The translations under genes and the position numbers were made by a program. A stretch of DNA of 64,000 nt, taken from the NCBI RefSeq assembly GCF_056746865.1, contig NZ_CM163382.1, one strand, 5' to 3'. Numbering within the stretch: the first letter of the stretch is position 1; each line of letters opens with the position of its first letter. Below the pieces are notes generated by a model. It saw only the letters and a list, made by a program, of their open reading frames with translations, did no database searches and was not told the origin of the DNA. Below, one piece after another: positions 60,096 through 64,000 of the stretch.

Positions 60096-60497
60096 AAATG
60101 TTCCTCTTCTTATTGTACTTAATTCCAAAGTAATTTTACGAAGAGAAATAAGTGAATGTAAGTGAAGTTAGTCACATAAAGAGATAGCAGATTTAGCTAA
60201 AAAAAGGGAAATAACAGTCCATGAAGCGTTGACATTACTTTCTATTCTACTAAGTAATTTCTCGACGATAAACAACTAATCTATTGATATTTAATAAATT
60301 ATTGTATTTTACTGACAAAATGCCGAATTGAGATCATAAATAATCATGCAACAGGTTATGCAAATGCATAAATATGTGATGAATGTCACTTATTTATTTC
60401 AATAAATATATCGCCTAAAAACAACGCGGGGCAGGGAATGGCTGCCCCATTTTAATTTTTACGTAGGGTGCGTGGTTGACTACTCGTTAGCAAATAA

Positions 60498-61259
60498 TCA
60501 AATAGCTAAAGCATTCATCGTGTTGCCCTTATTCATACCCGTGTGCCTTTGACAACGGTACTCCTTAGAAACTCTCTTTGGACTGTTGCCAAAATGTTTG
60601 CGGAACGCATAAATAAAATAAGATGTACTCGCATAACCACATTGTTCGGCAATTTTATTGACTGAACCTTCTACGCGTATCAAATTTTTTGCGTGCTGCA
60701 TTCTGGCATCTAAAAGAATCTGTGAGAATGTCGTTTGCTCTTGCTTTAGTTTTTTCTTCAACAGGCTTTCACTGATGTACAGGCAGTCACAAATATCTTT
60801 CAGCTTCCATGGGTGCGCCAGCTTCATGTTGACAATATTTCTCACTTTCCCGGAAACGGATAGCACACCGTTAGTTAATAGTGTAATGAAACCTTTGCAT
60901 GTGGCAAAAATAGACAGGCAAGAAAAAAGCAAAAGTTCTGAAAAATTATGATGATTGCGTTCTTCCGAGTTGAGATAAGCAATCATTTCATTAAGCAATC
61001 CAGTCGGTACATTTGAAGCACGTAAAAACTTCGCAGGAACAGGCACCGTCACTGTCTGGATGTTAGTGCATTGTAGATATTTTTTAATGGTATTTTCATT
61101 AAATCCGATTTCTTTGAAATGCCGCTCATAAGGTTCAAAATGCGTACGAACAGCGTTATCTACCATCAGGATCTCGCCGTCAGAGAAGGCGTAATCTTTA
61201 TCTAAAATGTTAGCGTTGAAGGCATGATGAATAAATATAACAGAACAAACGAGCGACAT
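60498..61259 (-). CDS. ydeO: AraC-family acid-resistance transcriptional activator
   Basis: 253 aa with C-terminal AraC HTH (AEQCGYASTSYFIYAFRKHFGNSPK). Confidence 0.85.
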   Translation of the reverse strand: MSLVCSVIFIHHAFNANILDKDYAFSDGEILMVDNAVRTHFEPYERHFKEIGFNENTIKKYLQCTNIQTVTVPVPAKFLRASNVPTGLLNEMIAYLNSEERNHHNFSELLLFSCLSIFATCKGFITLLTNGVLSVSGKVRNIVNMKLAHPWKLKDICDCLYISESLLKKKLKQEQTTFSQILLDARMQHAKNLIRVEGSVNKIAEQCGYASTSYFIYAFRKHFGNSPKRVSKEYRCQRHTGMNKGNTMNALAI

Positions 61260-61333
61260 TTTATCTCCTTAAAACAATAAAGTTTTTATCGATACTTTTT
61301 TAACATTTCATATTTATAATTTGCTGTTTATTT

Positions 61334-61531
61334 TCAGTCTTGCAAACTATTGATAATGAAATGTGTAAGATCCCTTGCAATGCGCCCCATTTCTGAAATA
61401 CCCAGCTGATCAATTGCCGAAAAAATGGCTATCAATGTAAGGGTCAGTAATAAGACAACCACAATTACAGACATGATCCCTTTATAGTTGTCTCTTTGCG
61501 TGATTTTATTTTTCACTATGGTCGCATGCAT
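61334..61531 (-). CDS. safA: Small membrane connector protein SafA (EvgS to PhoQ)
   Basis: Translation from MHATIVKNKITQRDNYKGIMSVIVVVLLLTLTLIAIFSA... gives 65 aa with one TM helix. Confidence 0.8.
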   Translation of the reverse strand: MHATIVKNKITQRDNYKGIMSVIVVVLLLTLTLIAIFSAIDQLGISEMGRIARDLTHFIINSLQD

Positions 61532-61778
61532 TTCAAATGTGTTTATTAAACGAATGACGTTAATCATCGTTAATCAGTATGCTTAATATAACAGGCTGGA
61601 GAATAGAGGAAATAGGACTGGCGCTTCAGTACTGAGCGGAGTTTCTTACAGCTGTAGGCGGAGGTATATATCTTATAACGAGCAGTTTAATTTAGCACAT
61701 GTGAGTAAATTGCGCGACAATGGTCAATGAGGAATTCTTCTGCTGTGCGGATGACAGCAGAAGAAATGAGGAGGCGAA

Positions 61779-64000
61779 TTAATTTGATGGTTCTAATTCA
61801 ACCGGAATACTTTTATAGCCAGGAATGCCACTTAATGGATCGTGGTTATCAAGTGTTAGCATGTGATTCGATTCTGGAAAATAGGTCACCAGTGAGCGGT
61901 CAGCCATAGGGTAAATGACCACTTTTAATCTATCCATGCGGCGTGAGCTTCGCTTACCGTCTGGCGTAAGCGCAATAAGATTAACTCTTTCGCCGTTTTT
62001 TACACGGCAAATTTTAGCTTGTTTAGCACTCATAAAGACCACATCTCGTTGACCGAATACCCCTCGATAGCGATCATCCATACCATAAATCGTCGTGTTG
62101 TACTGATCGTGACTGCGTACTGTCGCCATGACTAGCTTACTGTTAAACGCTGAAGAGGGATCTTCTAACAGCCCTTTACTGGTAATGAAATTAGCCTTAC
62201 CTGACGGCGTCATCCAGCGCCTTTCAGCAGCTGCGTTTATCAGGTGAAAACCTCCAGGATGTCGGATGCGCTGGTTATAGTCGGCGAACTCTGGCAGCAC
62301 AGCTTCAATGTCATTGCGAATGCGATCATAATCTTCCACCAGATACTCCCAGGCTACCACGCTCTGGGGTAGTGCCGCCTGCGCGATACCCGCGACCACT
62401 GCACACTCTGATTTCAGCATTACACCGGCGGGTTTTAACACGCCACGCGAGGCATGAATCATCGACATTGAATCCTCAACGGTTACCGCCTGCGCACCGC
62501 TTTTTTGCATGTCAATCTCGCTACGTCCCAGAACCGGCAGAATATAGCTATGCCGTGCGGTCAGCAGATGAGAGCGGTTAAGCTTAGTGGCTACGTGTAC
62601 CGTCAGATCTAATTGTGTTAACGGTACAGCGCTTGCTTCCCGATCTGGCATTGCCAGTGCAAAGTTGCCCCCCATGCAGATCAATGCTCGAGCCTGCCCC
62701 GTACATATTGCTTGCATGCTGGCAATTGCTGCATGTCCAGGTGCATGAGGTGGGGTGAAACCATAGCGCTCACCCAGGCGAGCCAGAAACTCTGCAGACG
62801 GTTTCTCGGTGATACCGACGGTTCGGTCGCCCTGTACATTAGAGTGACCTCGTAGTGGGCAGATACCCGCACCAGGCTTGCCAATGTTACCTTTCATCAA
62901 CAGCAGATTGACCAGTTGCTGTACATTCTGGGTACCATGTTCGTGCTGAGTGATCCCCATTCCGTAACAGATAATGGTGCGTTCGGCAGCGGCATATGCA
63001 TCAGCCAGTTCGGCGATTTGAGTCTGACTTAGTCCAGAAATACGCTCGATATCTTTCCACTCGGAATTGAGAACGTCACGGCGTAGCTCGTCAAAGCCGA
63101 CGGTATGCGTTTGAATAAATTCGTCATCCAGCAATGAGGGCCGACCTGCGGCGCTTGCAGCATCATCGCGCTCAATTAACAGGCGCATCATCCCCTTGAG
63201 CAACGCCATATCACCACCAATGCGCACGTTGTAGTAGGCACTGGCCAACTGAGTCTCAGAGTTCGTCAGCATTTCAAACGGGTTTTGCGGTGCGGTAAAT
63301 CGCTCCAGGCCACGTTCCTGTAGAGGATTGATGGCGATCATTTTCGCTCCCCGTTTCACTAAAGCGCGCAACGAAGTCAACATGCGAGGGTGGTTTGTAC
63401 CAGGGTTATGCCCAATGCAAATGACTAAATCGCATTTCTCAAAGTCTTCCAGCAACACGGTCCCTTTACCTACACCGATACTCGCTGCCAAACCCACACT
63501 GGTCGGTTCATGGCACATGTTGGAGCAGTCGGGGAAGTTATTGCTCCCGTATTCACGAGCAAAAAGCTGATAAAGAAAGGCAGCTTCATTGGAAGTGCGG
63601 CCCGAAGTATAGAATTCAACCTGATTGGGATCACTATAGCTTTGAAGGCGTTCGCCAATTTCGTCGAAAGCTTGTTGCCAGCTTAATGGCTTGTAACAGT
63701 CGCTGACGGCATCATATTTCAAAGGCTGGGTGAGACGCCCCGCAGCCTCAAGCTCGTGATCTCCCCAGTTAAGTAATGATTGAACCGTATTCTCAGCAAA
63801 GAAAGAGGCATTTACCTGCTTATCCGTGACTTCCCAGGCGATTGCTTTTGCGCCGTTTTCACAAATGTCGAATGACGCACTGTGCTTAGGATCTGGCCAT
63901 GCACATCCCGGACAGTCAAAGCCCTCTGGCTTATTCATGTCAAACATGGCAATAACATCCTGGCGTATATCCATCTGCTTACGTACTGCATTCGCTACGG
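61779..64000 (-). CDS. ydeP: Molybdopterin oxidoreductase YdeP (5' end beyond window)
   Basis: FdhF-like molybdopterin enzyme; frame remains open at the window edge, and the known YdeP N-terminus would start upstream of position 64000. Confidence 0.8.

Follow-up and report, generated by a model that had tools for sequence, protein, structure and literature searches.

The stretch from 60096 to 61778 of the analysed window (64,000 nt in all) is the safA-ydeO operon of Escherichia coli, which lies on the minus strand. The locus is already known and ordinary, and this occurrence adds no novelty. The window is E. coli chromosome with 47.6% GC over the 64 kb, and at least 80% of the region is present in 5351 of 5426 complete E. 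coli genomes, where the genes are annotated as ydeO, safA and ydeP. We have little doubt that safA and ydeO form an operon on the minus strand whose promoter lies in the 247 bp gap after ydeP and is driven by an EvgA box.

An earlier, sequence-only reading had described ydeO and safA here as co-oriented genes, and this placement stands: ydeO is at 60498-61259 and safA at 61334-61531, both on the minus strand, with PGAP and the K-12 annotation agreeing on both gene identities. In the direction of transcription, ydeP comes first, then safA and directly after it ydeO, all on one strand, and the same safA/ydeO/ydeP layout occurs in every member of a comparison sample of 13 E. coli strains, K-12 among them. 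The following features are referred to below:

60096-60497, minus strand: ydeO-ydeN intergenic region, 31.3% GC, which follows ydeO on its 3' side and precedes ydeN
60427-60449, minus strand: intrinsic terminator of ydeO (and of the operon), a G+C-rich 8-bp stem followed by GUUGUUUUU
60498-61259, minus strand: ydeO coding sequence, 253 aa, AraC/XylS-family activator with C-terminal helix-turn-helix domains
61260-61333, minus strand: 74-bp spacer between safA and ydeO; at 17.6% GC, no other piece of the locus is as AT-rich
61265-61270, minus strand: AAGGAG, the ribosome-binding site of ydeO, with 5 nt between it and the ATG, read off the sequence
61334-61531, minus strand: safA coding sequence, 65 aa, 198 nt, single-pass membrane connector
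61532-61567, minus strand: 12 codons (MINVIRLINTFE) by which the safA ORF is extended upstream in this allele, which yields a 77-aa ORF-track call
61585-61593, minus strand: putative extended -10 element TGTTATATT, read off the sequence
61643-61660, no strand assigned: EvgA box, an 18-bp inverted repeat (TTCTTACAGCTGTAGGCG) with its end 111 nt upstream of the safA ATG
61735-61765, minus strand: hairpin with a perfect 12-bp stem directly after the ydeP stop codon, without a proper U-tract
61779-64000, minus strand: 3' 740 codons of ydeP (acid-resistance oxidoreductase), continuing past the window end

Two plus-strand ORFs, at 60658-60951 and at 61727-61909, run antisense to ydeO and ydeP, which they overlap, and were set aside as mechanical. 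A scan of 59800-62000 for Rfam families, with E-values up to 1, gave no match.

The gene order of the window is that of K-12 (ydeM-ydeN-ydeO-safA-ydeP), and the K-12 safA-ydeO operon (b1500-b1499), a member of the EvgA regulon, is identical in order, orientation and protein lengths (65 and 253 aa). The intergenic lengths of 247 and 74 bp are also equal, both terminators are present and the EvgA box lies at an equal distance from the safA ATG. The window nevertheless carries a different allele, as SafA differs from its K-12 counterpart at 5 of 65 residues and YdeO by about 5 non-synonymous differences. In the acid resistance of E. coli, safA-ydeO is a textbook node, and the value of this locus is that of a calibration case for reading genes, a regulator and the start of a small gene from raw sequence.

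The family assignments are clear-cut. YdeO matches the NCBIfam equivalog model NF007407 along its entire length (positions 1-253 of 253, E=3.1e-182, 603.7 bits with a cutoff of 348), while the second-best family, GadX, reaches 106.7 bits, well under the GadX cutoff of 500. An AraC-type double helix-turn-helix is found at the C-terminus, where PF00165 (HTH_AraC) matches in two stretches and PF12833 (HTH_18) at residues 157-231, and these Pfam matches together with the equivalog bear out the original assignment of ydeO to the AraC family. YdeO is reported to activate gadE and other acid-resistance promoters (PMC4222967). ydeP is likewise identified by an equivalog (NF007406, profile positions 29-759), with its frame open to the window edge.

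SafA matches Pfam PF17073 with 156.2 bits (cutoff 27, E=2e-46), residues 1-65 covering model positions 1-65 of 66, and this match, PGAP and the K-12 annotation all confirm that the small gene is the 65-aa membrane connector. From its translation, read by eye, SafA is predicted to be a 65-aa protein with a basic N-terminus (K7, K9, R13 and K17) and one central hydrophobic span, the uncharged stretch IMSVIVVVLLLTLTLIAIFSAI at residues 19-40. It has been described as a single-pass inner-membrane protein whose C-terminal 25 residues form the PhoQ-contacting tail (PMC9496106), and it is reported to activate PhoQ, whose periplasmic domain it binds (PMC9496106; bioRxiv 10.64898/2026.05.06.723403). 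By description it resembles MgrB and MzrA, all three being small single-pass inner-membrane proteins that act on a histidine kinase at its periplasmic domain and whose genes are each controlled by a two-component system (PMC9496106; bioRxiv 10.64898/2026.05.06.723403); PhoQ is activated by SafA but inhibited by MgrB. Conservation of the 65-aa reading frame had been named as a check on the gene, and in the alignment the frame is free of stops and indels in all 13 strains. Judged by pN/pS, both genes are under purifying selection (0.35 for safA, 0.13 for ydeO), and the AAGGAG site of ydeO shows no variation in the spacers of the 13 strains.

A search upstream of safA for the EvgA box, also proposed at the outset, was successful, with the box found at 61643-61660. 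The validation of the consensus applied, TTCYTACA-N2-TGTARGAA, is purely empirical, on promoters of the K-12 regulon; it reportedly goes back to work of Masuda and Church in 2002/2003 and of Itou and colleagues in 2009. When the window was scanned with TTCYTACANNTGTARGAA, allowing up to 2 mismatches, the box was the sole match in 64 kb (0.04 expected), and any match at all occurred in only 4 of 100 shuffles. Both of its mismatches to the consensus fall in the distal half-site, which reads GGCG instead of GGAA, and its last base is G in the window vs A in K-12, where there is 1 mismatch rather than 2. In K-12, five further transcription units of the EvgA regulon have the motif on their upstream side (ydeP, emrK/evgA, frc, yfdX), with 3 occurrences in 12 kb (0.20 expected) and 4 in 15 kb (0.28 expected).

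The position of the box, 111 nt from the ATG, is kept in 13 of 13 strains, as is its core CCTACA-NN-TGTAAGAA, with one spacer variant and one flank variant, in an intergenic region where 17% of the columns are variable. Direct regulation of safA-ydeO by EvgA has been reported (PMC9496106, PMC5706723, PMC4222967), the safA-ydeO promoter being both bound and activated (PMC9496106, PMC5706723); for EvgA binding and for EvgA-dependent induction in mild acid, the sources are PMC9496106 (citing Itou et al. 2009), PMC5706723 and PMC4222967. Among species-representative genomes, the exact pattern of box plus flank matched three contigs, labelled as E. coli, a Candidatus Nanosynbacter MAG and an uncultured bacterium, of which the Candidatus Nanosynbacter MAG contig is E. 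coli-like in appearance. Such an exact pattern is too strict as a test for other Escherichia species, so that taxonomic restriction relies on the literature, in which SafA is reported in E. coli and Shigella only (PMC5706723, PMC9496106).

A consensus scan downstream of the EvgA box found no canonical -35/-10 pair or good sigma-70 promoter. This counts against the favoured reading, and it is also what one would expect of a promoter that depends on an activator. The candidate extended -10 element at 61585-61593 sits within a stretch of 14 nt (alignment columns 183-196) in which the 13 strains show no variation. PhoP and YdeO have been reported to exert feedback at the safA promoter (bioRxiv 10.64898/2026.05.06.723403). 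A PhoP box scan at up to 3 mismatches returned 201 matches vs 172 expected, with only weak 3-mismatch matches near safA; this outcome carries no information and does not allow the PhoP repression site that has been reported to be placed.

We favour the following sequence of events. The kinase EvgS would be activated by mild acidity, and phosphorylated EvgA would then bind the inverted repeat at 61643-61660. Transcription would begin roughly 50-70 bp downstream of the box at a weak promoter, possibly with the -10 element named above, and the mRNA would code for SafA and then YdeO, with the very AT-rich spacer of 74 bp between them, and would end at the hairpin at 60427-60449. SafA, a 65-aa single-pass protein of the inner membrane, would activate PhoQ through its periplasmic tail, and YdeO, as an AraC-family activator, would turn on gadE and other acid-resistance genes. 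When the signal is absent, H-NS bound over the safA body and the spacer would keep the locus low, and negative feedback would be exerted by PhoP and YdeO. Of this scheme, the analysis itself shows which genes these are, that the box is present and conserved and that the frame is kept, together with base composition and terminators; the binding of EvgA and H-NS, the SafA-PhoQ contact and the feedback are taken from the literature, while the -10 element and the transcription start are what we infer.

The ydeP promoter, which lies outside the window, is built like that of safA, with the box in the same orientation and the perfect half-site TGTAAGAA closer to the gene. The two promoters have an ungapped 50-nt module in common (39/50 identical in K-12). 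They differ in that the box of ydeP is followed by a plausible TTGAAG-16-TATATT, where safA has as its equivalent a weak hexamer (TATTCT here, TTTTCT in K-12), and the best -10-like element of safA is located 15 nt further downstream. Together with the allelic variation of the safA leader described below, this common promoter module offers small leads for studies of network variation.

The safA-ydeO stretch as a whole has 36.4% GC vs 47.6% for the window, but its AT-rich pieces are distributed differently from what the sequence-only reading had proposed. The block 61570-61780 does lie upstream of safA and does hold the EvgA box, yet its 42.2% GC, at the 22nd percentile for the window, does not make it conspicuously AT-rich, and the EvgA-box promoter segment has an unremarkable 40-42% GC. 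The strongest AT-rich element, absent from that reading, is the safA-ydeO spacer, which falls in the lowest 0.2% of same-size windows. It holds the palindrome TATCGATA, a partial match to the H-NS nucleation motif: TCGATAAATT is matched twice, in overlap and with 2 mismatches, at 61283-61298. A 340 bp fragment designated as "ydeO promoter" was bound by H-NS in competitive gel shifts (PMC2984483); it maps to 61240-61579 and so comprises the safA body and the spacer, while the EvgA box is excluded. The view of an EvgA-activated, H-NS-silenced promoter is supported as to the EvgA box and as to the reported binding of H-NS to the locus, but the bound fragment is not the EvgA-box segment. A scan for the H-NS nucleation motif gave no match-like site in that segment, and motif matches follow AT content. 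The promoter segment is neither AT-rich nor endowed with such a site, so that the sequence gives no clear sign of silencing at the promoter itself.

The transcript might have a different origin, with ydeO being transcribed mainly from a promoter of its own inside safA or the spacer, or via read-through from ydeP, rather than from the EvgA-box promoter. The hairpin at 61735-61765 is relevant here. Its inverted repeat is 100% complementary, the RNA fold is stable (-17.5 kcal/mol, z=-6.0) and it falls in a 37-nt invariant run, the longest of the intergenic region in the 13 strains; it was the sole meaningful find of a repeat search, the remaining pairs resembling chance in AT-rich DNA. The terminator scan missed it because its tail is UUCCUCAU. 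We consider it probable that this hairpin is the ydeP terminator and that it is leaky, as the lack of a U-tract makes read-through plausible. Such read-through may contribute to the transcript, since ydeP-safA-ydeO has been treated as one operon (PMC11052181), and A/T hexamers that could serve as -10 elements are abundant in the spacer. Nevertheless, the scan called no promoter-like site in the spacer and found no terminator separating safA and ydeO, the EvgA box near safA is conserved independently of the ydeP box, and safA-ydeO has been described as one operon transcribed from an EvgA-bound promoter (PMC9496106, PMC5706723, bioRxiv 10.64898/2026.05.06.723403). We therefore regard a main origin other than the EvgA-box promoter as quite unlikely.

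The start of safA has to be considered separately, as the mechanically called ORF (61334-61567) encodes 77 aa, against 65 aa for the curated gene, a difference of 12 codons. Relative to K-12, the safA leader has 7 substitutions in 27 bp, which remove an in-frame TAA and create the upstream ATG. The TAA, which stands six codons before the safA ATG, closes the longer frame in 10 of the 13 strains, including K-12, the source of the characterised 65-residue SafA, while the other 3 of the strains sampled have an open extension with an ATG start. One could argue that this allele produces a 77-aa SafA from the ATG at 61567 and that the 65-aa annotation is too short. The enabling changes (ATT to ATG and TAA to TTA) are linked and occur jointly on three different haplotypes, a 47-nt leader resembling that of the window is found in 579 of 5426 genomes (at least ~11% of complete genomes), and the 77-aa form occurs in public protein sets, being called by some annotation pipelines. 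In addition, both ATGs lack a recognisable Shine-Dalgarno sequence, so that a ribosome-binding site gives no advantage to the short form. Even so, the Pfam SafA model stops at the 65-aa start, PGAP gives 65 aa (198 nt) for a strain with 100% identity to the window, and with a -10 element at 61585-61593 the mRNA would have just ~11-13 nt between its 5' end and the upstream ATG. The three extended haplotypes differ by 2 synonymous and 2 non-synonymous changes, which does not indicate coding constraint on the extension. On balance, a 77-aa product is unlikely, and the 65-aa start is retained, in line with the initial suspicion that the ORF-track start was over-extended. If the upstream ATG were used, a minority of lineages, this one among them, might have a SafA of 77 aa whose cytoplasmic head is longer, or an altered rate of safA translation, and either effect, if true, would shift the strength of the EvgS/EvgA signal relay to PhoQ/PhoP.

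At the other end of the operon, 49 nt past the stop of ydeO, is the terminator at 60427-60449. The scan for terminators detects it on both strands; it folds with -16.4 kcal/mol (z=-2.8) and its stem is kept in the 13 strains. This bears on the block 60130-60500, which had been taken as an AT-rich region preceding ydeO. That it is AT-rich is true (31.8% GC, the lowest 4.5% of same-size windows), but it is located downstream of ydeO because both genes are on the minus strand, and it holds the ydeO terminator. An EvgA-activated, H-NS-silenced ydeO promoter in this block, which its AT content and a dense set of six H-NS-motif-like matches within 60132-60414 (283 bp) might suggest, is extremely unlikely, as minus-strand ydeO stops at 60498, which puts the block 3' of the gene, as no EvgA box is present there even at 3 mismatches, and as the gene that it precedes is ydeN. 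This candidate was ruled out by gene orientation. ydeN has its curated start at 60095; the TTG given by the ORF track, at 60128, is over-extended. In the 13 strains, 11.9% of the columns of the ydeO-ydeN gap are variable, and one strain that is otherwise identical carries an IS5 insertion at CTAA 60197-60200.

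The ydeO-safA islet at 60100-61780 is real, and the sequence-only reading of it holds in its essentials, for a locus that has already been described in detail. Both genes were named correctly and are co-oriented, lying on the minus strand, which carries every gene across 57.2-64.0 kb of the window. The features are as follows, the ORFs being those of the mechanical ORF list.

58413-60128, minus strand: 571-aa ORF, ydeN, flanking ydeO
60427-60449, minus strand: ydeO terminator, inside 60130-60500
60498-61259, minus strand: 253-aa ORF, ydeO
61265-61270, minus strand: strong ydeO ribosome-binding site, AAGGAG
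61334-61567, minus strand: 77-aa ORF, containing safA
61735-61765, minus strand: perfect 12-bp-stem hairpin after the ydeP stop (-17.5 kcal/mol, z=-6.0)
61779-63974, minus strand: 731-aa ORF, ydeP, flanking safA

The 253-aa protein contains AraC-type helix-turn-helix domains and matches the YdeO equivalog of NCBIfam over its full length (603.7 bits vs a cutoff of 348, E=3e-182), and Pfam SafA matches the final 65 residues of the 77-aa ORF from end to end (156 bits vs a cutoff of 27). The neighbouring products are the YdeN sulfatase, the YdeM sulfatase maturase and the YdeP oxidoreductase. As the ydeP frame is open up to the window edge, that gene is merely truncated by the window; the ORF list gives it as complete at 731 aa, the true gene having 759 aa. 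The same list places the start of ydeN at TTG 60128, while the curated ATG comes 11 codons later, at 60095. A small ORF, yneP (57116-57238, plus strand; b4747 in K-12), overlaps the 5' end of ydeM on the opposite strand and is intact in the window (40 aa, with 5 residue differences from K-12).

Of 5426 complete E. coli genomes, 5351 contain the 1681-bp islet at >=80% coverage, with ydeO, safA and ydeP annotated. Strain WP7-S17-ESBL-01 is 100% identical to it, an IS5 insertion excepted, and K-12 MG1655 has the identical gene order (ydeM-ydeN-ydeO-safA-ydeP), so that the window represents E. coli chromosome in which a known locus is present as an allele other than that of K-12. The IS5 element (3102-4295 of the WP7-S17-ESBL-01 stretch, L004) lies within the AT-rich ydeN-ydeO gap and has duplicated its target CTAA (window 60197-60200). 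Among 13 E. coli strains evenly spaced down the similarity ranking, safA is more variable than ydeO (10.1% vs 4.5% variable sites; pN/pS 0.35 and 0.13), with replacements at SafA residues 5, 18, 22 and 26, at 41, 44, 48, 51, 53 and 60 of the periplasmic tail, and at the last two residues.

The 65-aa SafA frame, the conservation of which had been proposed as a check, is intact in all 13 strains, with zero indels or stops. The suspicion that the ORF-track start of safA is over-extended holds against the curated annotation and against 10 of these strains, K-12 among them, in which an in-frame TAA precedes the ATG by six codons and the compared leader offers no upstream start codon. Only three of the 13, the window included, keep open the 12-codon extension from which the 77-aa ORF arises. 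Even for a strain identical to the window the PGAP annotation is 65 aa, and other annotation pipelines have put the 77-aa form into public protein sets. The open leader (61532-61567, minus strand) is a minority allele; its three strains represent as many haplotypes, and 579 of 5426 genomes have a 47-nt leader resembling that of the window. K-12 differs from the window at 7 positions in the 27 bp immediately upstream of the ATG, the key changes from K-12 to the window being ATT to ATG and TAA to TTA, by which an upstream in-frame ATG is gained and the TAA lost. In strain EC17CM6 the region upstream of safA (5433-5679 of its stretch, L001) is a mosaic, the first 200 nt after ydeP being those of the window and the last 47 nt those of K-12, which implies a recombination breakpoint within the promoter/leader.

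The EvgA consensus is TTCYTACA-N2-TGTARGAA, reportedly described by Masuda and Church in 2002/2003 and by Itou et al. in 2009. A search for the box predicted upstream of safA returned TTCTTACAGCTGTAGGCG at 61643-61660, the sole match with <=2 mismatches in the 64-kb window (0.04 expected; any match in 4 of 100 shuffles), while at <=3 mismatches a single match would not be significant (0.77 expected). The motif was checked by scanning two K-12 regions with known EvgA targets, which gave 3 and 4 matches vs 0.20 and 0.28 expected. The first has one match ahead of safA (1 mismatch), one ahead of ydeP (2 mismatches) and one within ydeO, this last being without the TGTA core and apparently a chance match; in the second, two precede yfdX, one precedes frc (0 mismatches) and one lies in the emrK/evgA gap. 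In all 13 strains the box keeps its position, ending a constant 111 nt from the safA ATG, and its core CCTACA-NN-TGTAAGAA is invariant, yet 17% of the columns of this intergenic region vary.

The promoter scan detected no canonical sigma-70 promoter downstream of the box, as expected for an activator-dependent promoter. We infer the transcription start, for which the best -10 candidate would be the invariant extended -10 TGTTATATT at 61585-61593. No recognisable ribosome-binding site was seen on inspection of safA, and an Rfam scan of 59800-62000 gave zero family matches. The post-ydeP hairpin falls within the longest stretch of the intergenic region that is free of variation; since this hairpin is without a proper U-tract, some read-through from ydeP is plausible, and ydeP-safA-ydeO has been termed one operon (PMC11052181).

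The published account is the best-supported mechanism for the locus. In that account mild acid activates EvgS, and phosphorylated EvgA on the box then activates safA-ydeO (PMC9496106, PMC5706723, PMC4222967). SafA, a 65-residue single-pass membrane protein, activates PhoQ by its periplasmic C-terminus (PMC9496106), and YdeO activates gadE and other promoters (PMC4222967), with repression of the locus by H-NS (PMC2984483) and negative feedback from PhoP and YdeO at the safA promoter (bioRxiv 10.64898/2026.05.06.723403). Binding and activity are taken from the literature; gene identities, box, conservation and terminators were verified here.

Corrections are needed where long AT-rich regions were said to precede the two genes. 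The islet as a whole has 36.4% GC vs 47.6% for the window. Positions 60130-60500 are indeed AT-rich (31.8% GC, lowest 4.5% of same-size windows) but lie 3' of the minus-strand ydeO and precede ydeN, whereas 61570-61780 is upstream of safA but has 42.2% GC (22nd percentile of the window), so its AT-richness was overstated. The most AT-rich element is the 74-bp safA-ydeO spacer (61260-61333; 17.6% GC, lowest 0.2% of windows), which had gone unmentioned. For the suggested H-NS silencing the sequence by itself is mixed: the islet is AT-rich and sites resembling the H-NS motif are concentrated in the spacer and the ydeN-ydeO gap, but the motif scan found none in the EvgA-box segment. Krin et al. 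(PMC2984483) showed that H-NS preferentially binds promoter fragments named for "ydeO" and "ydeP". Where the former lies also needs correction, as its primers, placed on K-12, correspond to window 61240-61579, a fragment spanning the safA leader, safA, the spacer and the opening 20 nt of ydeO and ending short of the EvgA box.

Apart from the minority leader allele, all that is mildly new is an ungapped 50-nt module common to the safA and ydeP promoters of K-12 (6040-6089 and 8699-8748 of the K-12 stretch, L002; 39 of 50 positions identical). It comprises the box and 32 nt downstream (safA copy, window 61611-61660), and the similarity of the downstream part was equalled or exceeded in 2 of 1000 shuffles; the emrK, frc and yfdX promoters have only the box in common with these two. 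The module may reflect duplication of a promoter cassette or a more extended protein contact. Boxes of the safA and ydeP types also occur on a 13-kb Candidatus Nanosynbacter MAG contig (L016, 2094-2116 and 4753-4775), 2659 bp apart, exactly the spacing of K-12; this contig is most likely mis-binned E. coli.
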